DNA of 30,705 nucleotides from a virus (taxonomy: Duplodnaviria > Caudoviricetes). The notes below the pieces were generated by a model. The model was not told where the DNA came from. It saw only the letters and a program-made list of their open reading frames with translations, and searched no databases. The position numbers and the translations under genes were made by a program. Each line of letters opens with the position of its first letter. The stretch's first letter is position 1. Of the stretch, positions 15,725 through 30,705 are shown in pieces. The stretch is taken from IMG/VR virus record IMGVR_UViG_3300037246_000955, positions 1 through 30,705 of that record. One strand, 5' to 3'.

Positions 15725-17443
15725 CTACACAACCTCCACTGTCAACAGTTTAACATCGCCAGCTCTGGGCACTTTTATTATTTCAACATTCATGACCCTA
15801 AACTTGGTATTCGGGGGCAGCAAGACTTCAAACTCTTGGGTATTATTCAACATCGGCAACACCCTGTCTCCTTTCTTAGCCGTGATCTTATACAGCACCC
15901 GGTCATCAGCAGCCGTGCCACGCAACCACTCTTTAGTGAATCGTTCGCTTAATGACGTTGACGTAAATGCTGAGTCAGACATCGTTGATCCAATAAGACT
16001 GTCTGCACTGGGCAACTTCAAATTACCCCCTCGCCATAGGATTGTATCGTGCTCCAGAACTGGCCACTTCGATACCGATCTCTTCAGAGTACGGATCGTT
16101 GCTGCCGTAGCTTCTGAGACATCAGCCGCCAAACCTCGCAACGCGCTATTGATCTTCCGATAATTTATCCCGACATACTGCCCCATAGCATCAATCGTAG
16201 TGGTACTGAATTTCCGCCAAGCTAAACGACCTTCCCCGAGCAAATCTAAGTGCATCAATTGCAAATTAGCGGTCTCGAATTCCAGACCATAGATACCCGG
16301 TTCACGTATCACGTTGCCAAATACTCTGCTGCCATTTTTGTTCAATTTAAGCGAACTGGCTATGTCTTCCAACATGCCACGAGTATTGGTCCCTGCACTT
16401 CTAGCAGCTGTGTATTCTTTCAGCTTTCCTCTTGCAGACAGTACAGTCTTACGAAAATCTCCCTGCTCAGTATGCTTCACAAGTAATTTAACGTGAGCAT
16501 TAAGCTGTGCCTGCAAATCTTTCTCAGACATTAGAGGCCCAAGCATATCTACACTGTCTCTCGGAACTGTAATCGACTGCACCGGCTCAACCTGTGTAAT
16601 CGACCCAGACCTTACCAGCACTCCCCGACAAAGCGGATGATACGGTGGCGTATCCCAGCCTTTGTCTTGAATCTGCGAACTCGACATCTGGCTAAGCTGC
16701 GACACGTTTTTCTTATTCTGGCTTGGCCACGGAGCCACTGACTTCATATCATCAGGGTTTGTTGTGGACATCCACGTTTCCAATTTCGTCCGAGCCTGAG
16801 CCACATTGAATTTGCGCCCGTGCATCGTGCGGCACACTGGGCATGTCCTACCATCAAGCTGTTCATTTATCTGAAAGCTGTCAATGCCACGCGCTGTCGC
16901 CTCAATCGTAAAACCCCAGCTGGCCAGCCGAGACGTATGCAGGCTTGAGCCGATATCGATGAAGCCCTTACCGTTCTTGCCAATGCTGCTAACAAACTGA
17001 CGGGGAAACGGTACTGGATCAGCTTTCTGAATCGCCGCCTCCTGCTGATCGACCTGTTCTTGCCCGAGCATCTCGATAGCCAAACGACACACCGACTGAG
17101 TGGCGTTCTCTTCCATCATAATAATCAGATTATTCGCTGCCAGCTTTATTTCTTCTGGCCTGCCCGAATCCATGAAGACGGATTTACGCGGGTCTCCGCT
17201 AAGCCTGCTCGCTCCAAAGAGAGCTGCCTGCATTCCGATAAATTCGACAAAGCGCCTATTCTCCTCAGCTGCCGCAGCCAAACTGAGTCCCTCACAGACA
17301 TCCACTGCTGCTGCAAAGTCACCTGAGTTGACCAGCTCAAGTATTTCTCGTGTCGTCGTCGCAGCGTCGCGTCTCCAGCTATTCAGTAAACGGTTGCTGA
17401 GCGACTTTTCAAGGACTAAGAAACTCTCAATGCTGACGGTCAT
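15725..17443 (-). CDS. MuF (SPP1 gp7-like) minor head protein fused to a VIP2-like mono-ADP-ribosyltransferase
   Basis: MuF motifs DGRTCPVCRTMHG and PPYHPLCR; ART motifs YRKINSALRG, LWRG (R), FTSTS (S-T-S), QEFEVLLPP (E-x-E). Start likelier ATG 17443 (MTVSIESFL). Confidence 0.9.
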   Translation of the reverse strand: MTVSIESFLVLEKSLSNRLLNSWRRDAATTTREILELVNSGDFAAAVDVCEGLSLAAAAEENRRFVEFIGMQAALFGASRLSGDPRKSVFMDSGRPEEIKLAANNLIIMMEENATQSVCRLAIEMLGQEQVDQQEAAIQKADPVPFPRQFVSSIGKNGKGFIDIGSSLHTSRLASWGFTIEATARGIDSFQINEQLDGRTCPVCRTMHGRKFNVAQARTKLETWMSTTNPDDMKSVAPWPSQNKKNVSQLSQMSSSQIQDKGWDTPPYHPLCRGVLVRSGSITQVEPVQSITVPRDSVDMLGPLMSEKDLQAQLNAHVKLLVKHTEQGDFRKTVLSARGKLKEYTAARSAGTNTRGMLEDIASSLKLNKNGSRVFGNVIREPGIYGLEFETANLQLMHLDLLGEGRLAWRKFSTTTIDAMGQYVGINYRKINSALRGLAADVSEATAATIRTLKRSVSKWPVLEHDTILWRGGNLKLPSADSLIGSTMSDSAFTSTSLSERFTKEWLRGTAADDRVLYKITAKKGDRVLPMLNNTQEFEVLLPPNTKFRVMNVEIIKVPRAGDVKLLTVEVV

Positions 17444-19295
17444 CGGCGTGCTCTGGAATAGAACTGGCCGCACCGAGAAGCTCAACAGCCCCCATCAGAT
17501 CGTGGTCAATCGCACTCATCATTCGCATCGTGCAATAGCCATCGAACTTCTGCCGTTCGTCGTCACTCAATCGAATGATTTGCTGGCGCATGATCTCGAC
17601 ATCGGCCTCAGACAATTCGTTGGTCATTTGACCACGGCACCATTGCGCTACCAGCTCCATCATGTCGAACGTATCCATAGCCTGCACCCTGCTTGGCGGC
17701 ACTACTGGTTGCGGTGCTGGCGCTCCGGGGGCTGGCGTACCGGGAGCTGGCGTACCGGGCGGAGCCAGATTAGCGATTATCGGCGGAATCTCTGGCTCTT
17801 CATTCGGGTCTTTCTCTTCGAACTCATTCGGCTTCAGACTCATGCCGGTGATTTCGTTGACCGCTTCGATACGGCCTTCCTTACTCAAATCTTCCTTCAC
17901 GAAGCCGAGCGCTTCAAGCTGGTTATTGATGTCCTGCACAGTCAACGGCAACGACCGGTAAACGTACACGCCTTCCGGGTCAAGCTCGCGCATGATCGTA
18001 TTATTGATGATCTCATCGAACTCATCCCGTTCAGGCCGGAATACTTGCGCCTCAGTTACCGTGTAGCTGGCAAACGCCGTAGCAAAACTGTAGTCATCAG
18101 CCTTGCCCACGAATATCGGAGGAAGACGGAATGAAGACCGAACCCGCATCTCGCAACGCTCGTCGTATTTCTCGAACATCGAATCGCTCATACGCTCAGA
18201 GCCGAATCGTTCAACCGTCACACGGACATTACCCGGCGAATCAATTGAACCACCTGTCGCCGCTACTTCGACAATGCCTGCACGATGAAAGCTCGATCCT
18301 CGGCCAGACATATATTGCTGCAATTGCTTGCGCACTTCGGTTGTCAGCTCACCACCCTGAATCAGAACCAGTGCAGGTGGCAGACCGCCGCTATTGAAAA
18401 AGTCAAGGTTCAGCTCTTCCGCTTTACGGCTACCCAGCACTGACGGAATCTGATTGATCCAGCGGGGCACGCCATAAGCCGAGTTCACGTCCTCGTAAAT
18501 CTTAAACTCCAGAATCTCGGTGGCCCGTTTCTCTGCTGGCAACGTACCTTCAGCCCACTCACCACTATCCCGATCCAATTCGCGACTGCCCGCATACTCT
18601 TTGAAGTACACCATCTTAGTGCCTTGCTTCTGCACATAACGGCGCTCACGGACGTTCATCAGGATTTTCATATCCTCGCCATCGCGCTTCAATGTCTGCT
18701 CAACCTGTACCGCTTCATCTAGCTTGACAAGGCGTATCTGATTTGCAGGAATGCGTTTCAGAAACATCAACGTGCCATCCAGCGCACGCAGCACTTCCAT
18801 GTAGGCATACCCGTAAATCTCAAGATCGCGTCGGGTCTCTCGCCGCAGTGTCATAAACGAAGTGCGTGGAAACGGCTCTTTGAACCACTGCTCAATACGC
18901 TCCTTCTCAGGGTCTTCCGAAAGCGGATCGTCTTCCTCGTCTGGCGCAGCCTTTTCGATTACTGAACCGGTGCCATCGATATTAACTTCCATCGCAGCAA
19001 CCATTTGGCCCAGCGAATTGTTTTTCTGCGACAGCGACGATAGCTGTTTCGGGTCATACGGGGGACGCAGCAATTGCGCGTTCGGATCATTGGCTTTCTT
19101 CGGGTTAAAAAAGAACGCCTCAAACGCATCGTCCTTTTCGATGTCGCTGCCGGACAGCACCTGCTTATCCTGCTTGCTGACTTTGCCACTACGGACAATC
19201 GTCATGTGCGAGCCGCCCTGAACGCCTAGCACAGTATCTAGCGGTACAACATTCGTACCCGGCTCATCGCCACCACTTGAGAACTTGACTGCCAT
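17427..19295 (-). CDS. Portal protein, PBSX family
   Basis: LLRPPYDPKQL...DLEIYGYAYMEVLR...YGVPRW...NLDFFNSGGLP...FRLPPIFVG...YSFATA...QVFRPER. Confidence 0.92.
   Translation of the reverse strand: MAVKFSSGGDEPGTNVVPLDTVLGVQGGSHMTIVRSGKVSKQDKQVLSGSDIEKDDAFEAFFFNPKKANDPNAQLLRPPYDPKQLSSLSQKNNSLGQMVAAMEVNIDGTGSVIEKAAPDEEDDPLSEDPEKERIEQWFKEPFPRTSFMTLRRETRRDLEIYGYAYMEVLRALDGTLMFLKRIPANQIRLVKLDEAVQVEQTLKRDGEDMKILMNVRERRYVQKQGTKMVYFKEYAGSRELDRDSGEWAEGTLPAEKRATEILEFKIYEDVNSAYGVPRWINQIPSVLGSRKAEELNLDFFNSGGLPPALVLIQGGELTTEVRKQLQQYMSGRGSSFHRAGIVEVAATGGSIDSPGNVRVTVERFGSERMSDSMFEKYDERCEMRVRSSFRLPPIFVGKADDYSFATAFASYTVTEAQVFRPERDEFDEIINNTIMRELDPEGVYVYRSLPLTVQDINNQLEALGFVKEDLSKEGRIEAVNEITGMSLKPNEFEEKDPNEEPEIPPIIANLAPPGTPAPGTPAPGAPAPQPVVPPSRVQAMDTFDMMELVAQWCRGQMTNELSEADVEIMRQQIIRLSDDERQKFDGYCTMRMMSAIDHDLMGAVELLGAASSIPEHADDRQH
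17716..17760. repeat. 3 x 15-bp tandem repeat encoding PG(T/A)PA in the portal C-terminal linker
   Basis: gctggcgctccgggg / gctggcgtaccggga / gctggcgtaccgggc. Confidence 0.85.
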
Positions 19296-19302
19296 GCGAT
19301 CT

Positions 19303-19318
19303 GTCCAATTGATTGGAT
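19303..19318. promoter_or_regulatory. Palindrome copy 3, GTCCAATTGATTGGAT
   Basis: 15/16 match, 7 bp upstream of the portal ATG (19295). Confidence 0.7.
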
Positions 19319-19356
19319 GCTCGCATCATACAGCTTCTATTCGGAAAACGGGCGCT

Positions 19357-19887
19357 TTATATCTTTTTCTCATCGTTTTGCAACGATTCTGCGATCTTTT
19401 GGGTCACTTGCAGATTTTCTACAATCTTGCCGACTGTCGAATTCAGTGCCTCAACCTTATTCCACAGCGTACCAAAGTCAGTATTCAACTTATCAAACGG
19501 CGATTGCTCAATAGACCCTACTGGTATCTCCATCATCTGCGGCAACGAATTCATATCCATAAAATGATCGACCGTCTTCTGAAGCGAATCAAGATGCTTG
19601 TGCAGTGCATCCACATGAGCCTGCCCGGTCTGAACTCCCTTTGGACGAATACCGGCATTCCACATTTCCTGCATCAGCGTATCAGCCTGATCGTAATCAA
19701 GCGCCAACGTCGGCACATCAGGACTCATAATCGCACCCGGCTCGATACAGCTTTCCTCGACAGTCGTAAATGCCCGGTGATATGACTCCCCATTCGTGCC
19801 CTCGCCCATCCAGTACAGATCGACTTTCTGCGTCATGATGTTGCGATTCGCGTACCAACGCCAAACTTTGTTGTGCTGAAACTTCAT
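19357..19887 (-). CDS. Hypothetical protein with C-terminal coiled coil
   Basis: 176 aa ORF; LMQEMWNAGIRP motif followed by a heptad-rich segment. Confidence 0.75.
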   Translation of the reverse strand: MKFQHNKVWRWYANRNIMTQKVDLYWMGEGTNGESYHRAFTTVEESCIEPGAIMSPDVPTLALDYDQADTLMQEMWNAGIRPKGVQTGQAHVDALHKHLDSLQKTVDHFMDMNSLPQMMEIPVGSIEQSPFDKLNTDFGTLWNKVEALNSTVGKIVENLQVTQKIAESLQNDEKKI

Positions 19888-19926
19888 GTCAATTCGCCCA
19901 AATTAGGGGATGGTAAGGGTAGGGGG

Positions 19927-20217
19927 TCATCGTCTTAACGCGGGAGACGGACACTGAGCGCCCCGGTTTAAGCGTAACCCTGTGTATTCAGACGGATTCT
20001 TTTGATATCGCTCACAAGCCTCCTTGAACGCTTCGAAGTGAACGGGTATCTCTTTCACCGAATCCACCAGTATGCTGGCGCAGAACCACGGCCAATCGTG
20101 TCTCGAATAGAACGTCACTTTTCTTTTACCGTCCAAACGCCTTTGCATGTTCCTGCCGACGAAATACATCGACTGCTGCTTCTTGGGTTTTTTGCGCTTC
20201 CCGCGTTTTCTAGCCAT
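19927..20217 (-). CDS. Basic hypothetical protein
   Basis: 96 aa, start overlaps the upstream stop, K/R-rich N-terminus. Confidence 0.6.
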   Translation of the reverse strand: MARKRGKRKKPKKQQSMYFVGRNMQRRLDGKRKVTFYSRHDWPWFCASILVDSVKEIPVHFEAFKEACERYQKNPSEYTGLRLNRGAQCPSPALRR

Positions 20218-20521
20218 CGGGATTTAAGACATCATACGCTTTTCTCAGATCATGCAAAGTAATTGACTCAAACGGGCTGGCAGCAACATGCGCTTTGGCG
20301 AATGGGTACAGTACGACCTTCACCACTCGTACCTCATCGATCAATTTGGCCATCTTTGTAATTGCTACTTCTGCCTGATCCTCGATAGCAGTATTCAGAC
20401 GATCTACTTCGAACTCCAGCCCCTGCACTTCAGCAGACATGATTGCCAGTTCCCCGGCTATCTCGTCATCTGTCTTGTAAAATTTGTCACTCAGCTTTCT
20501 CAAACGTTCTGCCGTCTTCAT
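20210..20521 (-). CDS. Hypothetical coiled-coil protein
   Basis: 103 aa, ATGA overlap with upstream gene. Confidence 0.7.
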   Translation of the reverse strand: MKTAERLRKLSDKFYKTDDEIAGELAIMSAEVQGLEFEVDRLNTAIEDQAEVAITKMAKLIDEVRVVKVVLYPFAKAHVAASPFESITLHDLRKAYDVLNPDG

Positions 20522-20706
20522 TCAAGCATCCCCTTTTCTATGGCGAAACTATCGCTCAGCTCAATTTTAGCACTGCACCCAATCTCTATATCGTCTTCCT
20601 GATCGAGTATCGCCCCAAGTGGTATCCAGATACGCTCGGCCTCGTAGTCCACCAAAACGGCTTTCTCAGTACGATGTACCACGTCAACGTCAAACCAATG
20701 TGTCAC
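20518..20706 (-). CDS. Small conserved-type phage hypothetical protein
   Basis: 62 aa with TEKAVLV...WIP pattern common in small phage beta proteins; packed between neighbours. Confidence 0.7.
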   Translation of the reverse strand: MTHWFDVDVVHRTEKAVLVDYEAERIWIPLGAILDQEDDIEIGCSAKIELSDSFAIEKGMLE

Positions 20707-20710
20707 GGTG

Positions 20711-23050
20711 TCATCCTATTGTCGGTACTGGAATCTCAACTGTTTCACCCAAGTTATTCAATCCCAGCTGCACGTCAACCGGGAAATCCAGTTGCGGCTT
20801 CCATCCAAATGTCCCCAGCGGCAAGTTCTCCATTACCGCCTTAATTCGTTTTGCCCACTCCATGTATTCGTCTTCCGGCACATAGAAACTGAGACTGTCG
20901 TGCGTGAAACCGAACAGCCACAGATCAGGGAATAGCTTATCGAGTTCGGCCATCGCCAGCAGACCCATATCGGTCAACGTGGCCTGTACTCCGGTGTTAA
21001 TTGCTTGCCTCTCCTGCTTGGCTCGAATGTCCTGCATCCACGTTGTGATCAACGGCAAATGTCGGATTCTTCCCAGCGGTGACTCGATGTACTTATGCTC
21101 CCTCGCGAATTCCCTTACCTCGTCGTGCCACGGATGCAGTCGATCATACAGATTGAAAAACGCATCAATAAATTTGTACGCTTCTTGCAGCGTTATCTCC
21201 ACTCCATAGCTCTTCCAAGCATAATCGACAAAGCCCTCGGCTCCCATCGTATAGATCAGTCCGAAGTTGCCAGCTTTGCCCCCTTGCCGTATCGCTGCAA
21301 TCAGTGGATCGTTATTTGCCCACATCTCCAGCGCTTCATCGTATTCATAACCGTTCAATTGTGCCCCGGTCTTCAGATGCAAATCGACACCATCCTTATA
21401 CGACTGGATCATCGTCGGCTCTTCCGCGATACAAGCTGTAATCCGCAGCTCTCCCTGCTGAAAATCTAAGTCCAGAATCACATAGCCTTCAGGCGGCACA
21501 TAGACGCTTCTCAGCGGCTTTGCCCAATCTGTACGCTTCGGTAGCGTCTGGTACGCAGGTTCCTTACAGGACGTCCTGCCCGTTCTCCCGCCACTATCAT
21601 CGTCCTTCGCATCATCCCCATGAAATTTCCCGCGAAACAGAATATAGCTCGGATGAAACCGGCCATCGGCTCGCAGGTGGGTCATGAACCCATCGATGTA
21701 CGTGCTCTTCGTTTTGCTCGCTTTGTTGAACTCCAGCAAGCATTCAATAAATGGTCCCGCCACATCGTGCTGACTGAACAACTGGAAGTGATCCGCGCTG
21801 GTGCTCGGTACTTTCGTCTTTGCAGTCATCATCTTCGGCTTGAGATTCAATCCCTGTTTCGTGAACAGGAAATCCGACACAATCTTTGGGCGGCTCGGAC
21901 GCAAATCACGATAGTGCTTATGCCTGAGTCGATACGGCAGCATGTCGATCATGCGCTCCTGATTCGTCTCAAGCACTTGGGTCACTTCCTCGTCCAATTG
22001 CTTGTACTTATCCATATCCACGACCATGCCCCGAAATTCCATTTTCCTCACAGCGTGCTGTGCCGGGTGCAGCAGTTTCGTATAGAACCGCGCCAACCTC
22101 TTTTGCTTCAACAAATCAGATCGCATTCTCACCGCAACCCGATAACAGGCATCGGTATCGCCCCCGGCATACTGGATCACGTCCGTCCTTGGCACCAAAT
22201 CCATGCGGCTCTTATCGTACTTTCGATTGAACTCGTCGTCATACCCGCCAATCGTCGTGTAAATCTTCGCGTGCAGATTCAGACTATTGCTACGGTTCTC
22301 CTGCAACAGCGAACCGACTAGCGTCGTGTCCAGCTTGAACCCACTGAAATCTTGAATGTGCCATTTCCATTCCAGCCACAGGGCATCGAATTTGAAGTTC
22401 GATCCGTACACCTTGACCCACCCGTCCATGCCCCGACAGATCGCAGCCAAAATATCCCAATCCAAACTCTCTAGCTCGTCACCCATTTCGAAATACATAA
22501 CGAACGATGACCCCTGCGCTACCGTAATGCTCAGCGCCACAATGTGCGCGTCAGGGTTCACGTAATCGAAACCAACTGTTTCCAGATCGACTCCCACTGG
22601 AATCGCTTGCTTGCCGCCCTTCTCATACAGTTCGGTAATCAGCGCAAGCACCGGCACAAGGCTTTGGACTTCGCTGTACGCGCCAGTCTCGGGCATCAAT
22701 AGTCCGGTATCCATTAGCCGCTTGGCCAGCTTAATGTCCCATAGAATCTCTGGGCGTCGCCCCCAATCAATGAATGCGAGTCCCGCATCCCACGTAACCA
22801 GATAGTTGCCAATGCCATGCCCGAGCAACTGACCGCGCATACTGGTGATCGCTCGGTTCTTTGGCGTATGGCCCAGCACCCCAAGCTCTTTCAGATTGTC
22901 TTTGCCGAAGGTCAGACACACATCGCCAGAATGAATCGCCCCCGGAAATTGCTGCAAACACTGATACTGGCAATCCAGCTTCATCAGCTGGGGCCTCACA
23001 AAGTCTTTGAACGATTTGGTGTCGTAATCAGCCCACGCTATTAGCGCCAT
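20711..23050 (-). CDS. polA: Family A DNA polymerase with 3'-5' exonuclease and degenerate N-terminal UDG-like segment
   Basis: ExoI VDLET, ExoII NFKFD, ExoIII YAGGD; motif A LDFQQGELR, motif B RQGGKAGNFGLIY, motif C THDS; SPLGRIR, ERQAINTGVQ. Confidence 0.96.
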   Translation of the reverse strand: MALIAWADYDTKSFKDFVRPQLMKLDCQYQCLQQFPGAIHSGDVCLTFGKDNLKELGVLGHTPKNRAITSMRGQLLGHGIGNYLVTWDAGLAFIDWGRRPEILWDIKLAKRLMDTGLLMPETGAYSEVQSLVPVLALITELYEKGGKQAIPVGVDLETVGFDYVNPDAHIVALSITVAQGSSFVMYFEMGDELESLDWDILAAICRGMDGWVKVYGSNFKFDALWLEWKWHIQDFSGFKLDTTLVGSLLQENRSNSLNLHAKIYTTIGGYDDEFNRKYDKSRMDLVPRTDVIQYAGGDTDACYRVAVRMRSDLLKQKRLARFYTKLLHPAQHAVRKMEFRGMVVDMDKYKQLDEEVTQVLETNQERMIDMLPYRLRHKHYRDLRPSRPKIVSDFLFTKQGLNLKPKMMTAKTKVPSTSADHFQLFSQHDVAGPFIECLLEFNKASKTKSTYIDGFMTHLRADGRFHPSYILFRGKFHGDDAKDDDSGGRTGRTSCKEPAYQTLPKRTDWAKPLRSVYVPPEGYVILDLDFQQGELRITACIAEEPTMIQSYKDGVDLHLKTGAQLNGYEYDEALEMWANNDPLIAAIRQGGKAGNFGLIYTMGAEGFVDYAWKSYGVEITLQEAYKFIDAFFNLYDRLHPWHDEVREFAREHKYIESPLGRIRHLPLITTWMQDIRAKQERQAINTGVQATLTDMGLLAMAELDKLFPDLWLFGFTHDSLSFYVPEDEYMEWAKRIKAVMENLPLGTFGWKPQLDFPVDVQLGLNNLGETVEIPVPTIG

Positions 23051-23456
23051 TCAGTTTTCTCCATTTCCCCTCGGCCTCGCAAGCCCATGTTCTTTTTCTT
23101 CCCGGCTCGCATCTCTTCAATGCTTCTCTGAACGACCGGACTCCACTGAAAACAGTCTGCATCTTAAAATCCACTTCCTTCGCATCAACCACCGTGCAGA
23201 ATGACGTCGAACTCAGGCCATTGAAGCACAACAGCACATACAAATCGTACCGAATATGGACGCACACCGCACTCTGATTCATCTTGCTTCGGTGCATCGA
23301 AGACACAATCCGCATCGGGCAGACCAACCGCATAGTTGGAACCATCGGAATCGCCAATCGTCCACTACCGCTTAATCGCTTCGCCCCCACTTCAAGGTGC
23401 ATCCCCAGCGCATCCGCTATCCAGTAATAATGCTCTTGCGGGATATACGTTTTCAT
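23028..23456 (-). CDS. Hypothetical protein
   Basis: Track ORF 23028..23471; ATG 23456 gives an ATGA overlap and has GGAGG upstream. Confidence 0.65.
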   Translation of the reverse strand: MKTYIPQEHYYWIADALGMHLEVGAKRLSGSGRLAIPMVPTMRLVCPMRIVSSMHRSKMNQSAVCVHIRYDLYVLLCFNGLSSTSFCTVVDAKEVDFKMQTVFSGVRSFREALKRCEPGRKRTWACEAEGKWRKLNGANSVG

Positions 23457-23725
23457 TTCAGCGACCTCCAATTGACTTTGCCATCTGACTGGCCAGCCGC
23501 TTCAATCTCCCCGACCTGAATACCGAAATACGTCAGATCGAATCTCACCAGACTAAACTCTTCGGTTCTACCCGGCTCATTCTTACTCGGGGAAATCACT
23601 CGTTTTCCATTATGCACCGCTGTATTGACGGTCCACACAATCTCTTCATCGTCCAACCCCGGCATCAGGCAACCAGTCGTAACCTGATCACCTATCGAAA
23701 ATTCTTTGAGTAGCTCTGCCTCCAT
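23453..23725 (-). CDS. Hypothetical protein
   Basis: 90 aa, RBS TAGGAG; FDLTYFGI motif. Confidence 0.7.
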   Translation of the reverse strand: MEAELLKEFSIGDQVTTGCLMPGLDDEEIVWTVNTAVHNGKRVISPSKNEPGRTEEFSLVRFDLTYFGIQVGEIEAAGQSDGKVNWRSLK

Positions 23726-23735
23726 GACCGCGCTC

Positions 23736-24635
23736 CTATGTCCCTACCTGCCCAATCACGTCGATATTTGGCATCGGCGTCACAAACTTGAATCCAGTTC
23801 CAGACAGGACTGCACCAATGCAGCGTCTAGCCGTTAGCTCGTCAATCCCGTTAAAGTGAACCGACGTATAACCATTCTCGATATACGACTCATTGAATCC
23901 CGCCGCAATCAAGGCAGTCGAATGAACCGCTACCGGCCCCTCAACCCGAATGCTTAAATTATTACCAGTCCAGCGAGCACCAAACTTCAACTTATGCCCG
24001 TCAACCAGCCCTATGCAGTGATACACGCTCGATTCGCTCGTGCCATTCACCGGCTGATACATCGTATTGGCGTTGGCCAGCTTCACCTTGTGCATTTTCA
24101 GCGCCTGTTCAACTGAGAACTCCGTCAACGGCGGGGGCGCTTCTTCAATCGGCTCCCCATGAACTTTCTTGTCAAATGCTGTCCCCTCCATCGCCTCTTC
24201 TGCTGCGATATCGTCAGGCTCGTCTATCATTGATGACGCAAACGACTCTTCAAAATCATCAGCTTTATTCGGCTCAGCTATCGAACCAGCTTCCGCTTTC
24301 AAGCTCTCGTTCATCGCATTCGTATCGGCATCGGACCACTTCGGGGTTTTGCCCAACTGCGTCAAACAGATTGACAGAGCGCCCTTCAACTGTGGGCCAA
24401 TAGAACTCAGAATTGCTGCTGGCAGCATGCCCTCTTGGGCCATCTTGAGCGTACCGGATTTGATCGGCATATCTTTCACAATAGGATGACCGGCATCGCC
24501 AAATGCCAGCTTGCTGCCCGAATTATTCGTGTGAGCGTAGATGCCAAGATCGTCCATCTCATTGACCTGAGTGGGCGTCAGCCCGAGTGCGAACCACTCG
24601 TTAATCTGCGCTACTGTAATTTTATGCTGAATCAC
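23736..24635 (-). CDS. Hypothetical protein (299 aa, acidic central linker), likely early gene
   Basis: GTG start with GGAGG RBS, directly behind the promoter cassette; C-terminal domain MYQPVNGTS...RVEG...YTSVH. Confidence 0.8.
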   Translation of the reverse strand: MIQHKITVAQINEWFALGLTPTQVNEMDDLGIYAHTNNSGSKLAFGDAGHPIVKDMPIKSGTLKMAQEGMLPAAILSSIGPQLKGALSICLTQLGKTPKWSDADTNAMNESLKAEAGSIAEPNKADDFEESFASSMIDEPDDIAAEEAMEGTAFDKKVHGEPIEEAPPPLTEFSVEQALKMHKVKLANANTMYQPVNGTSESSVYHCIGLVDGHKLKFGARWTGNNLSIRVEGPVAVHSTALIAAGFNESYIENGYTSVHFNGIDELTARRCIGAVLSGTGFKFVTPMPNIDVIGQVGT

Positions 24636-24638
24636 TTT

Positions 24639-24696
24639 TTGCCTCCATGACTATCATTCTACTCTGCCAGAATGACGCCCGTTTGTCAAATTTATT
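24639..24696 (-). promoter_or_regulatory. Sigma70-type promoter plus RBS cassette, copy A
   Basis: Minus strand AATAAATTTGACAAACG-N11-GGCAGAGT-N5-GATAGTCATGGAGGCAA: TTGACA (24684-24689), 17 bp, CAGAGT (24661-24666). Confidence 0.75.
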
Positions 24697-25369
24697 CAAC
24701 TTTCAGCGCACCGAACAAACAGTGCTCGGTCTTCACTGGATTCACTGTCGTGACGTTCGGCGCGGCCTGTGCTTTGCTCGTTCCCTTACCCTTGTGGCTG
24801 TGCGCCTTCGAACCCTTGACCTCTTTGCAGTGGTAGTGCTTCATCAGGAAATCTACCTGCGATTTCGACTCCACTGCCTTCTTGCAATAATTCTTTCGGA
24901 CATAGCTGATCTGATCTTCTTCATCAGTCAACACTGAAACCAGTGCACTGAGCACCAGCCCGGTTCTGCCGTGGCCACCAATGCAACCAATGTGCACTTT
25001 CTTCCCGGCTCGAATCTCGTCAGCCAGCCAATCGACCAACTCTCTGAACTCGTCAGCATTTGTGGGCGGATGGTTATCTTTAATCTCGTAATGAATCGCC
25101 GCACCCGCTATCCACGGAAACCTCTGCTTGTGACTTTTCATGCCCCAATCGAGGCCCACATAAACATCGGCATCTTCATGAATCGGGCTGCTACACGATC
25201 CGCCATAAACGAATTTCGTGCCTCCCTCTGAAATCTTCAACTCCAGCGGCGGGTGACTGTGATAGCAGCGCTTAAACGAAGACTCGCCCCATTTCGACTT
25301 GGATTTCGTATCTTTCCAGTCGATCACGTTGCTATCTTTTGACCACCCTTCTGCTTTCCCTGTTGTCAT
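24692..25369 (-). CDS. CX5R protein-tyrosine/dual-specificity family phosphatase 1
   Basis: P-loop HIGCIGGHGRTG (Cys129), acid loop IKDNHPP, Q-loop AVESKSQ. Confidence 0.9.
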   Translation of the reverse strand: MTTGKAEGWSKDSNVIDWKDTKSKSKWGESSFKRCYHSHPPLELKISEGGTKFVYGGSCSSPIHEDADVYVGLDWGMKSHKQRFPWIAGAAIHYEIKDNHPPTNADEFRELVDWLADEIRAGKKVHIGCIGGHGRTGLVLSALVSVLTDEEDQISYVRKNYCKKAVESKSQVDFLMKHYHCKEVKGSKAHSHKGKGTSKAQAAPNVTTVNPVKTEHCLFGALKVE

Positions 25370-26409
25370 CGTATCGCCTTTGATTTCTTGACCTTGACTC
25401 CCGGCATAATCTGCAAGTACATTTTCTCTTCCATCGCCTTTTTCTGGGCGGCTTGCTGCTGTGCCAGTTTCACTTTCTCCAATACGGCCTTGTTCTCGGC
25501 GATGAACACCGGATCATGACCATACTGCTGCATATTCTTAGCCTTCTGGCTGCTGTAACTCTGGACTGCCCCGAGCTTCTCGACCACATCCCACGCTACC
25601 CACGGATTGACCGTCACCCCGAGCAAATTCTCCATTTCCTCAACAAAAAGATGGTGCTCAGTCTTCGTATGCGGACAATTGCCCGACTTAATCAAATTCG
25701 GTATCTGGCCACCCCGCTGGCAATCCAGCACGGTGTACAGCGACGTCGAATCGTAATGCTTAAACTGAAAGCCCTTGTTGAAAATCGGCCCGTTATTGTG
25801 CGCCAGCGTGTAACCGATATCGAGCATCATCTCGATGCTAATCTGGCCATTCACACAATCTCTGATCGCCTCAGTAACTTTGCCCCAAGCCGGACCACCG
25901 TAGCTCGATGACCACTGCAACTCATTGAACACGTCGCACAAATAGTCCAGATACGGCCCCAACTTCAAGTCGCCAGTGTAATTGTACAGCGCGTTCTGGC
26001 TATGCTTCTTCACCGACTTCGTGAATTTCACACACTCCAGACCATGCTTCGTCTGCAAATTATCTTCTTGCGAATTCGTCAGATGCCGCGACTCTCTCGT
26101 CGTCGTAATCAACACGTAATGAAATAGCCGTGCACCGGCCACATTCAACGTTTTGTGATATTTTTCGATCAGCACCAACTTCTGACCAAGCGGCTCGTCA
26201 GGGGAAACCTGCGCCCCCATCTCGTGCATCATGTGCTGGCCTAAATAGAAGCTGAGTGCCTCTACCTCTGGATGCTCTTCTTGACAGGAATTGACATGCG
26301 CCTTCGCATACTTCCCAGCGTCCCGCAACAGCACCTGCGACAAATTTCTCGCCATTGTGCCGGGGCGTTCACTGCGATGGTATGCAAGCGTGTCGTAATC
26401 GTGGATCAT
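25366..26409 (-). CDS. Hypothetical protein (347 aa) with enzyme-like motifs
   Basis: TTRESRH, WSSSYGGPAWG, DIGYTLAHNNGPIFNKG; behind promoter cassette B and coupled by ATGA overlap to phosphatase 1. Confidence 0.85.
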   Translation of the reverse strand: MIHDYDTLAYHRSERPGTMARNLSQVLLRDAGKYAKAHVNSCQEEHPEVEALSFYLGQHMMHEMGAQVSPDEPLGQKLVLIEKYHKTLNVAGARLFHYVLITTTRESRHLTNSQEDNLQTKHGLECVKFTKSVKKHSQNALYNYTGDLKLGPYLDYLCDVFNELQWSSSYGGPAWGKVTEAIRDCVNGQISIEMMLDIGYTLAHNNGPIFNKGFQFKHYDSTSLYTVLDCQRGGQIPNLIKSGNCPHTKTEHHLFVEEMENLLGVTVNPWVAWDVVEKLGAVQSYSSQKAKNMQQYGHDPVFIAENKAVLEKVKLAQQQAAQKKAMEEKMYLQIMPGVKVKKSKAIR

Positions 26410-26413
26410 TCAA

Positions 26414-26471
26414 TTGCCTCCATGTCTATCCACCAACTCTACCGAAGTGGACAACGTTTGTCAAATTTATT
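26414..26471 (-). promoter_or_regulatory. Sigma70-type promoter plus RBS cassette, copy B
   Basis: Minus strand AATAAATTTGACAAACG-N11-GGTAGAGT-N5-GATAGACATGGAGGCAA: TTGACA (26459-26464), 17 bp, TAGAGT (26436-26441). Confidence 0.8.
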
Positions 26472-27036
26472 TGAACGCTTTCGTCGCCTTGACCAACCAC
26501 GAAACATCGAAATCTCTGACGAATTTTTCCTGCTCCTTCGTCTCTACAGCGTGATGGCTGTACAAGTTTCTGATCCCGGCAACATAATCACTCGGATGCC
26601 GCTGCCACCATCGAGTCGTCGCTCGGTGCGCTACCTTTATCAGTAGTGCCAGAAACATTCCGGTGCGGCCCTTGCCACCCCAGCAACCAACATACGGAAC
26701 AATCCCGCCCTTCATCAACACGATAGTGCTAATTAGGGCACTCTCGATCAGCTTAGGATTCGGGACACTGAAATCTTTAATCGGACAATCCACCATAAAC
26801 GGCAGATCAAGCTCTGCGGCCAACTTAATGCCCGGTTGCGTCGGCGGCTTCTCTTTGTACGGACCTGCCGATATTGGACACGTTCCCCACGGAAACAGTA
26901 TCGCAAACGTCTTCGGCTTCTGCTCAAAATACTGTCCAATTGATTGGACGGTGTTCTGCTCAGGCAAATCGAAATACTCGTCGTACTGACGATTCACTCT
27001 GTTATGCCGATCATTCAAATACTTGGAGCGGCTCAT
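26467..27036 (-). CDS. CX5R protein-tyrosine/dual-specificity family phosphatase 2
   Basis: P-loop YVGCWGGKGRTG, acid loop IKDFSVP, Q-loop AVETKEQ; start likelier ATG 27036 than the track's 27099. Confidence 0.9.
   Translation of the reverse strand: MSRSKYLNDRHNRVNRQYDEYFDLPEQNTVQSIGQYFEQKPKTFAILFPWGTCPISAGPYKEKPPTQPGIKLAAELDLPFMVDCPIKDFSVPNPKLIESALISTIVLMKGGIVPYVGCWGGKGRTGMFLALLIKVAHRATTRWWQRHPSDYVAGIRNLYSHHAVETKEQEKFVRDFDVSWLVKATKAFK
26934..26949. promoter_or_regulatory. Palindrome copy 4, GTCCAATTGATTGGAC
   Basis: Exact 16-bp copy inside the 5' part of phosphatase 2. Confidence 0.65.
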
Positions 27037-27108
27037 TTTATTCGTGCCCCCCAAACCAATCGATAGTTCGATAATTCCAATACGCATCGATTTTCGCAAA
27101 ATAGATTG

Positions 27109-27161
27109 AGCGACCGTGCGTGATTTCCCACAGAAAAGCGTGGGTCACGTAATAGGTCGCT
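27109..27161. other. Intergenic three-segment stem-loop (candidate structured RNA or processing site)
   Basis: AGCGACC/GGTCGCT, CGTGA/TCACG and CCCAC/GTGGG nested pairings. Confidence 0.55.
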
Positions 27162-27192
27162 TGCAGATTTTCCCAAAATGAATGTTTCACGT

Positions 27193-27627
27193 TTACCTCC
27201 GTGATTTACGTTTATTCATTCCACCATTCTGCCTGAATGGTTCACGTTTGTCAATGGCCGCACAATGCTGACAGGGCCATTCCTGCCGCTTGGCTTTCCG
27301 GCAAAATGCAATCTCGCATTTCCCATCGCAACCAAAACATCCCTCGTACACTATGAACTTTCGCGTGTCTCCACACTCAGCGCACAACGGTTCGTAATAA
27401 GATAATTGCTCCAGTCGATTGCTCTCCACAGTCAACAAGAGGTCACCGTAACGACGATTGCCCTCGGGGTGAGTAATGGGTGCCGACAGATAGATCGCTT
27501 CCCTGAGCCAATCTAGGGCGCTTGAGCCTTCTGCATAGCCCATCTTTTGAACCCACTTCAACCAGCTGAGCGGGATTCTAACTCCCTGCGGACTGCTGGT
27601 CTTTCTTTTTCCGATATACAATGCCAC
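27193..27627 (-). CDS. Cys-rich zinc-finger hypothetical protein
   Basis: SAPITHPEGNRRY, then CAEC, CFGC, C-x4-C, CQHC; true start may be downstream of 27627. Confidence 0.7.
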   Translation of the reverse strand: MALYIGKRKTSSPQGVRIPLSWLKWVQKMGYAEGSSALDWLREAIYLSAPITHPEGNRRYGDLLLTVESNRLEQLSYYEPLCAECGDTRKFIVYEGCFGCDGKCEIAFCRKAKRQEWPCQHCAAIDKREPFRQNGGMNKRKSRR

Positions 27628-27895
27628 GGTCGATATTGATCCTTCTCGGTGCTTCGATCACAACCTTCACGCCATGCCGCTTAATGTCAGCGCCAGTCCC
27701 GGCGCTCACCCTCACTGACTGCATAATTTCTACAGCTTGCTGATCGGTTACCTCCACGATCTTGTGCAGTGCTGGCTGATAGACTTTCAGCTTAAAGCAA
27801 AACTCGTGTCGAATCTCATGCAATTCCACCCGTACATCATCGACATAAAAATCGTTGTACGGCTCGTCTGGATAAAGCTCTAATACCAGTCCCAT
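27578..27895 (-). CDS. CsrA-like putative translational regulator
   Basis: N-terminal MGLVL and C-terminal VKVVIEAPRRINIDRGIVY resemble CsrA MLILTR and VRIGVNAPKEVSVHREEIY, with a long internal insertion. Confidence 0.55.
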   Translation of the reverse strand: MGLVLELYPDEPYNDFYVDDVRVELHEIRHEFCFKLKVYQPALHKIVEVTDQQAVEIMQSVRVSAGTGADIKRHGVKVVIEAPRRINIDRGIVYRKKKDQQSAGS

Positions 27896-27896
27896 G

Positions 27897-28343
27897 CTAA
27901 ACCTCCATGCTCAATGCCTCTAGCGCCCTGCGGGTCACTTTCCAAATTGATCCCCCCTTCGTTCCGGGTCGAGCTTCCACTCGTTCGATCAAACCTTTGT
28001 GCATCAACACGATCAACTGGCTCGATACGTCTGACGTATTCTGCCCGCTCACCCCACACAAATCTCTGGTCGTTACAGTCTCCGGGTACATCGAGGCGAC
28101 GTGCCCCAGACACTTCTTCAATTTCGTGCCCTGCTCGGGCATCTTGAACTCGCGCTTCGGTTGCGTGTGGATTCGATAACCCCCGTCTGGCAATTTCGCC
28201 CAAACGTATCGATACAGGCCGCACATACAACGCTGCACAATATCCATATCTGTCACTTCGTACCAAGCCCTGCTGTGGCATTTCGGGCACTCGTCCCGTT
28301 CGTTCATGACACGTGGCTGCTTCCGCACAATAGTGACTGCCAT
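27897..28343 (-). CDS. Zn-ribbon plus winged-helix putative transcription regulator
   Basis: CPKC...CMCG, then TTRDLCGVSGQNTSDVSSQLIVLMHKGLIERV...GGSIWKVT; RBS GAGGGG. Confidence 0.75.
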   Translation of the reverse strand: MAVTIVRKQPRVMNERDECPKCHSRAWYEVTDMDIVQRCMCGLYRYVWAKLPDGGYRIHTQPKREFKMPEQGTKLKKCLGHVASMYPETVTTRDLCGVSGQNTSDVSSQLIVLMHKGLIERVEARPGTKGGSIWKVTRRALEALSMEV

Positions 28344-28349
28344 ATCCCC

Positions 28350-30479
28350 TCACTTGAGCACGTCGAACACTAAGCGACTCTGCGAGACAGCTTTCGGCTT
28401 TTCCCGAACCGGATTACCTGAATCCGCCATCATCTTAAACAGCTTCGCGGCGACGTGCTCGCCTCCGATTTCCTTAGCAAAACCCTCGTCAATGACAACA
28501 ATGCCATCGCTATCCAGCAACTCTTGCAAATTCGTCACTCTGGAAACCACTTTCCAACCATTCTTTCGAAGTTGGTCAATCTCCTGAGTCACGCAGTGCT
28601 GTGAAGGCACTAAAACTGCTATCTTCTTCAATTGGCTCAACCCTTTCGTGTAAATCAATGTGGCCAAGCGTTCTTTCAGAGCAGTCGTGTCGAGGACATT
28701 ACCTGACTCTCCAACCAGTTTCCAGAGCATCTCGTCCGACGACAACTTCTCTTCCCCTGAAATCGTCAGATCGATGTAGCACTCTGTGATCGAATCGTCC
28801 TCGTTCGCCTTGATCAAAAAGTCTTTGAATTGCTTGCTGTCACTACCTTCTGTCGTAATATAGCGGTTCTCGAACACCGAGTCATCAATGTGCGATCTAA
28901 TCAAAACATTGTTGGCATCTTTCAATGCCCACTCCAGAATTTTGGATGCAACTGGATCAACTTTGCCCTTCGTTAGCGGCAACTCTTCAAGCCAAACGCG
29001 CCCGGTGCTGCCATCTATCGTGATCTTCTGAGGAAATCCAGACAGATCAGGTAAATCTGTGCACCCGACTACGCAGTGCTTCTCAAGCGACCGTCCAACA
29101 ACTGCCGCGTGGCTGGTAGCTCCACCGGTTCGGGTCAGAATGCCAACACTTGCGGCCATTCCACCGAAATCTTCTGGCGTCGTCTCGTCAGTAACCAAAA
29201 TCACCGGCTTATCTTTGCCGACGAGCTTAGCTTGCTCTGCGGTCGTAACCACATGGCCTACAACGAATCCCCCACCAGCTGCAATACCCTTGTATTGATG
29301 CGGCGGCGTCTCGCCCTTGACCCTAATCTTCTTCATCGCCATGTACTGCTTGGCGGAAACCCGGCTAACAGCGTCAGCCTGACTAATCAAACCCTCGAAT
29401 GCCATGTCATGAGCAATTTTGAAAGCTGCTTTCGCGCTTCTCTTGCCAATCCGGCACTGGAGCATCCAGAGCTTCCCATCTTCGACGGTAAACTCCAAAT
29501 CCATCATATCGCGGTAGTGCTCTTCTAATTTCTCGGCGTACATCAGCAACTCAGCTGCTGTATCCGCACCGAACGCTTCCAACTCACTGATTGGATTCGG
29601 CGTCACTACCCCGGCAACCACGTCCTCTCCCTGTGCATTCACAAGGAATTCGCCCATCAATTCGGCCTCGCCGGTCGCTGGGTCTCTGGTGAAACAAACA
29701 CCGGAGCAGGACTCTTCATTCTTGTTGCCAAAAACCATCATCTGAATGTTCACGGCAGTGCCCATGCTATTCGGAATATCGTGCATCTCACGGTATTCGA
29801 TAGCTCTCGGGCTGTCCCATGAATCAAATACTGCCCGTATTGACCCCAGCAACTGCTGCTTCAACGTCTCGGGAAATCCCTTGTTGTTGAACGTCATATA
29901 CAGGGTTTCGAAATTCTCTTTCGCCTTTTTCATGTGCTTGAGACTCAAAATCATCTCAGCTTCGTTCGCTGGCGGCGCTGGCAGGTTGTACTTGTACGTC
30001 AACAACCAGCCCCACTCTTTCGAAAATTCCTTGGATTCCATCGACGCAACGGTAGTGCCATACATCTGCACCTGTCGGCGGCGGCAATCAAGAGTGGCCA
30101 ATAAGCCCAGCTTATCTGCCCACTCGTCAAAATTATGATTCGTCAGCCCGATGTTCAACAGGGTGTCCATCATCCCCGGCATCGAGTGCTTAGCACCTGA
30201 CCTGACTGACCAGAGGGGCATGTAGCCCAACTCTTCTTCAATCTCCAGCAACGCTGGCATCACGTGGTCATCAATCAAGTCGCACAAAAATCCGGTCGTC
30301 TCAGCGACCTCTTTCATTGCGCGGTATTCGTTGCAGACGGTCGTCGGAATCGTGATCCCAAAAGGAACCGGCATTCCGAGATTCGCCATCTCAGCTAAAT
30401 TCGCTCCCTTACCACCGAGCAAATCAGACATGGTGGCATCGCCATCAGTCTTAAATCCAAATTTTGCAATATCGGTCAT
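28350..30479 (-). CDS. PPDK-like dikinase: ATP-grasp and phospho-His domains, no pyruvate-binding barrel
   Basis: LGGKGANLAEM, SVRSGA..SMPGMMDT, MVFGN, GEFLVNAQGEDVVAG, DLEFTVE..LWMLQCR, TTPEDFGGM, GGATSHAAVV (His457), IDGSTG. The last ~200 aa lack GIGLxRTEHM and FGTNDLTQ. Confidence 0.93.
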   Translation of the reverse strand: MTDIAKFGFKTDGDATMSDLLGGKGANLAEMANLGMPVPFGITIPTTVCNEYRAMKEVAETTGFLCDLIDDHVMPALLEIEEELGYMPLWSVRSGAKHSMPGMMDTLLNIGLTNHNFDEWADKLGLLATLDCRRRQVQMYGTTVASMESKEFSKEWGWLLTYKYNLPAPPANEAEMILSLKHMKKAKENFETLYMTFNNKGFPETLKQQLLGSIRAVFDSWDSPRAIEYREMHDIPNSMGTAVNIQMMVFGNKNEESCSGVCFTRDPATGEAELMGEFLVNAQGEDVVAGVVTPNPISELEAFGADTAAELLMYAEKLEEHYRDMMDLEFTVEDGKLWMLQCRIGKRSAKAAFKIAHDMAFEGLISQADAVSRVSAKQYMAMKKIRVKGETPPHQYKGIAAGGGFVVGHVVTTAEQAKLVGKDKPVILVTDETTPEDFGGMAASVGILTRTGGATSHAAVVGRSLEKHCVVGCTDLPDLSGFPQKITIDGSTGRVWLEELPLTKGKVDPVASKILEWALKDANNVLIRSHIDDSVFENRYITTEGSDSKQFKDFLIKANEDDSITECYIDLTISGEEKLSSDEMLWKLVGESGNVLDTTALKERLATLIYTKGLSQLKKIAVLVPSQHCVTQEIDQLRKNGWKVVSRVTNLQELLDSDGIVVIDEGFAKEIGGEHVAAKLFKMMADSGNPVREKPKAVSQSRLVFDVLK

Positions 30480-30488
30480 TTTTACCTC

Positions 30489-30698
30489 TTAACGCGGCAG
30501 ACGGGTGATGCAAAATGATTTGCGGCTTACAGCATACGGCGGCTGAGATTCAATGGTCACTCGATAGCGCCCTAAAATGCTGCAACGTCGAATTCGAATA
30601 TCTTGGACTTCAACTTTTACGATTTTGCCACGGAAAGTCGAATTTCCTTTTTTGACAGCAAAATCAGCACCAACAGCATTTTTAGCAGATCGGCTCAT
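30489..30698 (-). CDS. Small basic hypothetical protein
   Basis: 69 aa ending just before the TAAGAGGT RBS of the dikinase; start is at the window edge and may extend further. Confidence 0.5.
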   Translation of the reverse strand: MSRSAKNAVGADFAVKKGNSTFRGKIVKVEVQDIRIRRCSILGRYRVTIESQPPYAVSRKSFCITRLPR

Positions 30699-30705
30699 GC
30701 GATCT

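Follow-up and report, generated by a model that had tools for sequence, protein, structure and literature searches.

Introduction

Pyruvate phosphate dikinase (PPDK; EC 2.7.9.1; C. symbiosum structures 1KBL and 1DIK) combines an ATP-grasp domain and a histidine swivel domain with a barrel of about 340 amino acids that binds phosphoenolpyruvate (PEP) or pyruvate. Glucan water dikinase is a His-swivel dikinase that is paired with the CX5R phosphatases SEX4 and LSF2. HpeHI, CreHI, PpsAB and rifampin phosphotransferase use the swivel for transfer to a non-pyruvate acceptor, and the two-component forms are split over two proteins (PMC12167813). VadK (Rv1127c), a mycobacterial PPDK without barrel, autophosphorylates its histidine and is aided in its solubility by an operon partner (PMC13400623). 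Here we describe a gene block in the viral contig IMGVR_UViG_3300037246_000955 (IMG/VR; Caudoviricetes), which we analyzed over its whole 30,705 bases (the window). The block encodes a PPDK-derived dikinase, a 347-amino acid protein that we call U347, and two CX5R phosphatases (PTP1 and PTP2).

The phage dikinase shares the ATP-grasp domain and His swivel with PPDK and keeps all of their catalytic residues, whereas its barrel has shrunk to about 190 variable residues that are predicted to clamp a separate protein. Like VadK, it has a PPDK-derived ATP-grasp and His domain without a pyruvate site, but VadK is reported to have no barrel at all, while the phage enzyme keeps an eroded barrel and is accompanied by U347 and two CX5R phosphatases (PMC13400623). 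Whereas HpeHI, CreHI and PpsAB consist of an ATP-grasp subunit and a subunit that joins the swivel to an RPH-type substrate domain, with no stable complex between the two (PMC12167813), the phage split is predicted to separate ATP-grasp, swivel and clamp from an acceptor subunit for which fold searches returned no RPH structure. Nor does the phage protein follow the RPH-type order, with the swivel C-terminal or on the substrate subunit: its swivel is central on the ATP-grasp chain. In contrast to the glucan water dikinase system, no protein of the block has a carbohydrate-binding module (E<=0.01), and a glycosyltransferase is not linked to the block family-wide. By analogy, the module would work like VadK in its first half-reaction and like HpeHI and PpsAB in being split, while belonging to neither.

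The module is real, widespread and mis-annotated. In dozens of cultured phage genomes, some of them proposed for therapy or aquaculture, the dikinase gene bears the label PPDK, and Vibrio phage papers treat it as a PPDK metabolic gene boosting host glycolysis (PMC12038007, PMC9229204); this annotation, as PPDK or as an auxiliary metabolic gene, is very likely wrong. Our literature search, which covered openly accessible papers, returned no paper describing a dikinase-partner-phosphatase module, and the accessible portions of PMC7824862, PMC5512222, PMC9503650, PMC13729227 and PMC12419801 contain no such description.

Results

The block is conserved across a family of siphophages

The window is a single siphophage contig in which every long open reading frame (ORF) lies on the minus strand. 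As the initial annotation had noted, the dikinase, both phosphatases and U347 are co-oriented upstream of the DNA polymerase gene polA; the full minus-strand order is dikinase, three small genes, PTP1, U347, PTP2, a 299-amino acid gene (g299), two small genes and polA. The family to which the window belongs consists of 80-130-kb siphoviruses and includes Rhodobacter phage RcZahn, Stenotrophomonas phages DLP3 and DLP5, Rhizobium phage RHph_Y1_11, and Vibrio phages V-YDF132 and SIO-2. The same order is found in these cultured relatives, where the genes are annotated 'pyruvate phosphate dikinase', 'tyrosine phosphatase' and hypothetical proteins.

We counted co-occurrence in two sets of loci, which overlap, hold near-duplicates and were chosen with family profiles. 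In the set anchored on U347 (the best 80 of 116 IMG/VR matches to a U347 alignment), loci with enough flanking sequence carried the dikinase upstream in 71/71 cases, a phosphatase upstream in 77/78 and a phosphatase downstream in 77/77. In the set anchored on the dikinase (the best 80 of 199 matches), 67 loci with at least 4.5 kb downstream were counted and 13 short loci set aside; U347 was present in all 67, the upstream phosphatase in all 67 and the downstream phosphatase in 66. Ten further loci in bacterial genome contigs each encode a dikinase, a phosphatase and U347. About 80 loci of uncultured phages and 5 of cultured phages have this gene order, and nine whole genomes share 18 protein clusters, including dikinase, U347, phosphatase, g299, capsid, portal, terminase, polA and helicase. 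This clustering is far beyond chance. Dikinase, U347 and phosphatases occur together in nearly every locus, and the independent distribution of dikinase and phosphatases that would have refuted the initial annotation is not seen.

The dikinase keeps its ATP and histidine sites next to a probable eroded barrel

The 709-residue dikinase matches PPDK_N (E=7e-49) and the PEP-utilizers mobile domain (PF00391, E=6e-21), with no match to the PEP-utilizers C-terminal domain. Its residues 5-532 align to residues 2-541 of C. symbiosum PPDK (E=3e-110), and the alignment stops at the first barrel strand. His457 sits within a TSHAA motif in the swivel (residues 424-493). Across 65 non-identical sequences of the family, each 590 amino acids or longer, K24, R93, E329, Q341, R343 and H457 are kept in 65/65 and D327 and T455 in 64/65. 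Columns conserved at 90% or more number 95 in the ATP-grasp domain and 30 in the His domain, against 0/204 in the C-terminal part, and none of four barrel motifs is present in any of the 65 sequences. Family members have 172-289 residues past the His motif. In a model of residues 386-709 (mean predicted local distance difference test, pLDDT, 90), helices separate about seven short strands, and a fold search with it returned weak matches to TIM-barrel aldolases. Because the tail has no conserved column and no barrel motif, and because its fold matches are weak and of this type, we conclude that the C-terminal ~190 residues are most likely a decayed pyruvate barrel that neither binds pyruvate nor forms a catalytic domain of a new kind. 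Scores stay below the cut-offs of TIGR01828 (PPDK; 488 bits against 843) and PRK05878 (truncated actinobacterial PPDK; 393 bits against 456), and PEP synthase gives 100 bits.

These results bear out the initial annotation's view of a dikinase with intact ATP-grasp and phospho-His domains, no pyruvate-binding domain and a target other than pyruvate. Its further description of the enzyme as substrate-swapped holds for the change away from pyruvate, but not for the place of the swap: most likely no new acceptor domain lies within the dikinase, and the acceptor site is likely supplied in trans by U347. A 881-amino acid ORF in MT835511 is by its size a full-length PPDK.

U347 resembles no solved fold

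A word search found 199 relatives of U347, and a profile search 2,324 clusters at E<=0.001 and 644 at 1e-30. At this stricter level, conservation of the block over hundreds of phages equals that of capsid and polymerase, which points to a core infection step. U347 belongs to no family in Pfam, NCBIfam or PADLOC; its sole match was PHROG 20946. Across 119 U347 sequences with a mean identity of 29%, 20 columns are invariant, among them Y55, R94, Y98, R105, E106, R108, G171, G172, W175, D197, H204, N205, F210, K212, D229 and Q231.

The U347 model is all-helical, with a pLDDT of 94.5. A PDB sequence search returned nothing at E<=10, Foldseek nothing at E<=0.001, and VIA-align no match of Z>=5 among 48,161 chains (best Z 4.5); the ESM Atlas gave no usable match, and a viral Foldseek search found homologues only. 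U347 thus resembles no solved fold by sequence or structure search, although a new fold is thereby unproven. The dikinase matches RPH in the ATP-grasp and swivel parts only, and no RPH entry appears in the U347 fold list, which need not mean that U347 lacks such a domain. We considered HEPN, Fic, HD, ferritin-like and lipocone folds by their motifs, and rejected them for want of the motif order or a fold match. Bacillus phage G gp141 was likewise rejected as U347-like (profile probability 0.5%). A single-sequence scan of viral contigs with U347 returned nothing, while an alignment-based scan succeeded. A search for fused dikinase-U347 proteins, confined to proteins of 736-2100 amino acids, gave one match, a giant-phage protein without a dikinase domain.

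The dikinase tail and His domain are predicted to bind U347

The initial annotation had proposed predicting complexes of the block's proteins. Folding dikinase residues 386-709 with U347 gave a complex score of 0.81 (runs 0.81, 0.86 and 0.48), while the best of three controls scored 0.00. Of solved pairs, 116/157 reached the mark for a complex, and of mismatched pairs 2/215; these are rough counts obtained with our own alignments. The runs share at least 62% of contacts, and partner pLDDT is at least 82. In the model, the tightest contacts join an eroded-barrel helix (D582-L585-L588-V589) to U347 residues 15-17, 23, 85-96 and 192, and the interface also holds the His domain, including His457, against U347 Y55, H59, D197, T201, L202, N205, Q231, R232 and G234. 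The clamp helix, D582-x2-L585-x3-[FV]589-G590, coincides with the faint family motif of the tail, D..L...FG.

Family sequences lend this interface modest support. The 30 interface positions are slightly more conserved than the 160 others (0.31 vs 0.24, p=0.04), and over 78 gene pairs the covariation of 25 predicted contacts exceeds random (mean Z 0.55, p=0.004, kinship uncorrected); the strongest covarying pair overall, 705-15, falls in the interface. PDB sequence, Foldseek and VIA-align searches found no solved complex resembling this one, which makes template recall by the folding model unlikely. We therefore have a prediction in which eroded barrel and His domain together bind U347, with His457 facing its invariant face. 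If it holds, it represents a new way to split a His-swivel dikinase, in which a dead barrel has become the clamp that grips an acceptor subunit of unmatched fold, and it points to the exact residues for mutation.

Both phosphatases are intact

PTP-SAK, Tc-R-P and DSPc family matches are found among the two phosphatases. The catalytic loops are whole, as the initial annotation had read them, and nearly invariant in the family: the Cys of the CX5R[ST] loop is kept in 75/75 and 77/77 sequences and the Arg in 74/75 and 76/77, for PTP1 and PTP2 respectively, and D98 of PTP2, the general-acid Asp, in 76/77. The nearest solved relatives of PTP2 are small archaeal-type PTPs, 5z59 (E=2e-5) and 2i6i. 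PTP1 probably starts at the ATG at 27036, behind a 50-amino acid ORF (27190-27038). This ORF, overlooked in the initial annotation, has its own promoter-like site and a strong ribosome-binding site (RBS) and is coupled to PTP1. The PHROG label 'thymidylate synthase' for the phosphatases is ruled out by their CX5R motifs.

Promoter-like sites suggest early expression

Sigma70-like sites lie within 150 nt upstream of U347 in 41/81 loci, compared with 8/404 coding control windows. Within 250 nt, we found them upstream of the dikinase in 32/64 loci, of PTP1 in 22/74 and of PTP2 in 2/77. In eight genomes, one of them siteless, they stand before g299 (7), U347 (5), the dikinase (5) and replication-region genes; none precedes the capsid, terminase, tape-measure or tail-tube genes, and the portal and protease genes have one once each. 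The total number of promoter-like sites in positions 19000-30705 of the window is not above chance (10 vs 11.1), and positional conservation alone is informative. In ghost-particle proteomics of phage DLP3, none of the proteins of the block (gp135, gp139-142) is among the 21 virion proteins (PMC7326821). Because of the promoter-like sites and this absence from the DLP3 virion, the block appears to be expressed early, to be non-structural and to be driven by the host polymerase, with U347 and PTP2 forming one unit.

Ten loci (L004, L016, L017, L018, L019, L028, L033, L034, L052, L081) carry the palindrome TGCAATTAATTGCA just upstream of the -35 box of the U347 promoter. Within 2 mismatches, it occurs near the U347 start in 50/163 loci of a redundant set, and not there in the window; it is a possible operator. 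Among 73 proteins scanned from a close relative and the core clusters (for example L150:6222-7046, L150:13765-14307 and L151:4776-5333), we found no sigma factor or RNA polymerase, and most structural genes lack sigma70-like sites. No RNA data set containing the window was found; among DNA data sets, the best match is a marine sediment metagenome, possibly the source of the contig.

Giant phages carry a second family of U347-like domains

A search of longer proteins identified a 1,926-amino acid protein with two U347-like domains, and from it 43 proteins and 51 viral loci. U347 and this domain are homologous over 218 columns (probability 97.9%). Kept in both families (119 and 94 sequences) are F54, Y55, E106, R108, H109, G171, G172, W175 and D197, as well as T/D201, L202, H204, N205, F210, K212, L228 and D229; Tyr55 is present in 100% of the 119 U347 sequences and 91% of the 94 giant-phage domains. 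R15 is absent from the giant-phage domains, as is most of the N-terminal docking arm (occupancy 0.26), and no PEP-utilizer or PPDK_N domain was found in the 32 giant-phage records searched, including the ten that are at least 90% complete. A CX5R phosphatase directly adjoins a giant-phage U347-like domain in 6/51 loci, in three independent arrangements. This comparison indicates that the pocket is older than the dikinase link, that the docking arm goes with the dikinase, and that the phosphatase link recurs.

The giant-phage domains occur in tandem arrays of five or six genes and inside proteins of 1,000-3,900 amino acids, and 2/25 scanned long U347-like proteins, in the range of 3,000-3,900 amino acids, contain ADP-ribosyltransferase (ART) or GNAT domains. 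A short leader precedes the giant-phage domain in 12/39 cases, against 6/260 other ORFs, by a pattern written after seeing the sequences; U347 itself has such a leader in 0/120. This leader resembles the capsid-targeting propeptides of T4 in sequence. T4-type internal head proteins with capsid-targeting propeptides and polyvalent phage proteins are known systems (PMC9026906, PMC5512222), and the likeness to them lies in the leader and the ART and GNAT domains of the giant-phage proteins; the accessible portions of these papers do not describe the U347-like domain. The giant-phage proteins are likely injected effectors, and the shared pocket opens a second, unstudied family of such proteins. 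In these giant phages and in phages of about 60 kb (L097-L147), we noted the motifs W..YGG..W and IDH.YDLQHN...FNK (for example L116:7860-16693, L129:6366-14231, L128:4166-14036 and L118:3822-15632).

Discussion

A proposed two-subunit dikinase acting on a small molecule

We tentatively favor, at just short of an even chance, a two-subunit dikinase in which U347 provides the acceptor site for a small molecule, probably nucleotide-like, early in infection, with the phosphatases reversing or finishing the reaction. ATP, probably together with inorganic phosphate as in PPDK, would very probably phosphorylate His457 with release of AMP, because the ATP site is fully conserved and the truncated PPDK VadK provides a precedent. 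The barrel remnant would then probably act as a docking clamp, its helix 582-590 binding the N-terminal arm and helix 85-96 of U347. The swivel is predicted to carry His457~P to the invariant U347 face of Y55, D197, T201, N205, Q231 and R232, behind which the model places E106/R108/H109, the GG-x2-W loop, H204 and K212. Given these three steps, we slightly lean toward a small acceptor molecule that bears phosphate, for instance a nucleotide or a signal derived from one, because the invariant residues are glycine, aromatic, basic and acidic, because the same residues occur in stand-alone giant-phage proteins, and because host-sigma70-type promoters are shared with replication genes. PTP2, encoded by a gene that overlaps U347 and lacks a promoter-like site of its own, would join PTP1 in reversing or completing the reaction. 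As a core function of the phage family, the module would work outside the virion and early in infection.

Several observations weigh against this two-subunit dikinase. One of the three complex runs scored only 0.48, and the 25 contacts with the lowest error are all at the clamp helix, none at His457. The covariation is weak and uncorrected for kinship, and its alignments are akin to the folding-model input. The nucleotide nature of the acceptor is drawn from residue types only, and nucleotide-metabolism neighbors are patchy (dNMP kinase in 11, MazG in 9 and dCTP deaminase in 6 of about 95 loci). Since the pocket is kept in giant-phage relatives that have no dikinase, it may be active by itself, and DLP3 ghost particles may lose internal proteins. 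A second phosphatase is not universal, as Vibrio phages SIO-2 and Virtus carry one. Bacillus phage G encodes a separate 365-residue truncated PPDK (gp139, L006:8001-9098) beside a tubulin/FtsZ-like gene, with neither U347 nor a CX5R phosphatase within 8 kb. Finally, polA, portal and g299 share the synteny of the block, and the phosphatases may be passengers.

In a wider version of the two-subunit dikinase, U347 would be a new enzyme fold with which many phages act on, or counter, a nucleotide signal or phosphate carrier of the host. In giant phages, it would be injected out of the head as tandem copies and as part of polyvalent proteins, while this siphophage family would have bolted it to a domesticated PPDK whose dead barrel serves as a clamp, for an ATP-driven write/erase cycle on that molecule, an essential early step. 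We regard this combination as unlikely in full.

Alternative explanations

The strongest competitor, itself rather doubtful, is a protein phospho-switch, in which His457~P passes to a U347 residue (Tyr55, Asp197, Thr201 or His204) or to a host protein presented by U347, and the CX5R enzymes erase the mark, timing the early-to-late transition or a lytic decision. Tyr55 is near-invariant in both families and lies inside the predicted interface, the phosphatases resemble small PTPs, regulator-like genes stand inside the block, and the 73 scanned proteins include no sigma factor or RNA polymerase. VadK, itself a barrel-less PPDK, autophosphorylates and binds metabolic enzymes, but the accessible passages show no transfer to protein (PMC13400623). 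About 15 invariant polar, glycine and aromatic residues over two distant families, moreover, speak for a ligand-binding or catalytic pocket and exceed what a phosphorylation site needs, and most invariant U347 residues make no direct contact with the His domain in the predicted complex.

Reverse flow, in which U347 would hold a high-energy phosphate donor and the dikinase would turn AMP and pyrophosphate from the neighboring polymerase back into ATP (or dATP), is improbable. By its TIGR01828 and PEP synthase scores, the ATP-grasp domain is nearest that of PPDK, whose reaction is reversible, and the module shares a fixed position and promoter type with replication genes; this scheme, however, leaves two conserved phosphatases without a role, has no indicated donor and does not account for U347 relatives that lack a dikinase.

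We give similarly little credence to a module that makes a family-wide DNA base or sugar modification protecting against restriction. DLP3 DNA withstood 15 restriction enzymes (PMC7326821), RcZahn, RHph_Y1_11 and V-YDF132 carry sugar-nucleotide and glycosyltransferase genes 7-10 kb upstream, and the block sits beside polA. The glycosyltransferase of the family, recognized by its homology to the one annotated in RHph_Y1_11, is present in 9/29 module genomes (7/24 of those at least 90% complete) and can alone explain DLP3-like resistance. Further, GATC occurs at 0.01 of expectation in G034 (L155-L159), a complete 90-kb family genome, a strong restriction-site avoidance, and several family genomes avoid CTAG, GGCC or CGCG, as expected of unprotected DNA. 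With the glycosyltransferase in so few module genomes and GATC nearly absent from G034, we rejected family-wide DNA glycosylation, and either a glycan, as raised in the initial annotation, or DNA glycosylation is disfavored as the target.

Slightly less probable still is that the genes are neighbors by descent only, the dikinase and U347 perhaps cooperating while the phosphatases do unrelated work, such as nucleic-acid end healing or host signaling. Because polA, portal and other genes keep the same synteny, co-occurrence alone is no proof that the phosphatases act on a dikinase product; one phosphatase is lost in SIO-2-like Vibrio phages, and the closest complete relative (G033) encodes an RtcB-type RNA ligase (L150:16707-17897). 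On the other side stand the repeated adjacency of CX5R phosphatases to giant-phage U347-like domains, and the overlap of PTP2 with U347 and near-lack of PTP2 promoter-like sites described above.

For Vibrio phages, the gene has been published as an auxiliary metabolic gene that encodes a working PPDK, on the grounds of homology, modelling and docking (PMC12038007, PMC9229204). This is scarcely credible, since the C-terminus has neither a conserved column nor a barrel motif, the TIGR01828 score falls below its cut-off, and PMC12038007 itself states structural overlap for residues 1-527 only.

Genomic setting

Table 1. Positions of genes and promoter-like sites of the block in the window.
Feature	Position	Strand	Remarks
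PPDK-derived dikinase subunit, 709 amino acids	28350..30479	-	ATP-grasp 1-385, His457 swivel 386-505, eroded barrel 506-709
148-amino acid Zn-ribbon and winged-helix-like protein, regulator-like	27897..28343	-	only 29/87 loci
105-amino acid CsrA-like protein	27578..27895	-	weak Pfam match under cut-off; 80/87 loci
144-amino acid protein, conserved gNrR motif and Cys-rich tail	27193..27627	-	70/87 loci
50-amino acid ORF, GGAGGT RBS	27038..27190	-	stop 1 nt ahead of PTP1 ATG
CX5R phosphatase 1 (PTP1), CWGGKGR, 189 amino acids from likely start	26467..27036	-	domain matches, motif
U347, all-helical, predicted acceptor-site subunit	25366..26409	-	alignment, model, fold searches
CX5R phosphatase 2 (PTP2), CIGGHGR, 225 amino acids; D98, C129, R135	24692..25369	-	4-nt overlap with U347 stop
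299-amino acid core protein (g299), conserved C-terminal domain	23736..24635	-	81/87 loci; 9/9 whole genomes
Family A DNA polymerase (polA)	20711..23050	-	downstream neighbor of block
Sigma70-type promoter-like TTGACAAAC site TTGACA-17-TAGAGT	26436..26464	-	directly upstream of U347
Sigma70-type promoter-like TTGACAAAC site TTGACA-17-CAGAAT	27226..27254	-	upstream of 50-amino acid ORF and PTP1
Third TTGACAAAC promoter-like site	24660..24689	-	upstream of g299

PADLOC 2.0.0 defence-protein models matched 0/11 proteins at E<=0.01. The g299 protein has no family match, and an ESM Atlas search with its C-terminal domain was empty; in Vibrio phage records and papers it is mislabelled, by position, as 'transporter' or 'pyruvate decarboxylase'.

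Part of the family has an accessory cluster before the terminase that encodes an ATPase, a deacetylase, an epimerase, an aminotransferase, a methyltransferase, a glycosyltransferase and a ParB-like protein (L149:33281-39512, L003:2280-8725, L004:1194-7189). From its gene content, this cluster is a candidate for amino-sugar DNA modification and could explain the restriction resistance of DLP3.

Beyond polA come the genes for the portal, a MuF-type head protein, a protease and the capsid, and then tail genes. The head protein (15725-17485, minus strand) has a C-terminal ADP-ribosyltransferase domain, and relatives have ParB or zeta-toxin-type kinase domains in the same slot. Residues 1-140 of polA form an extra N-terminal domain with no Pfam match, which may be akin to the uracil-DNA-glycosylase-like domain of SPO1-type polymerases.

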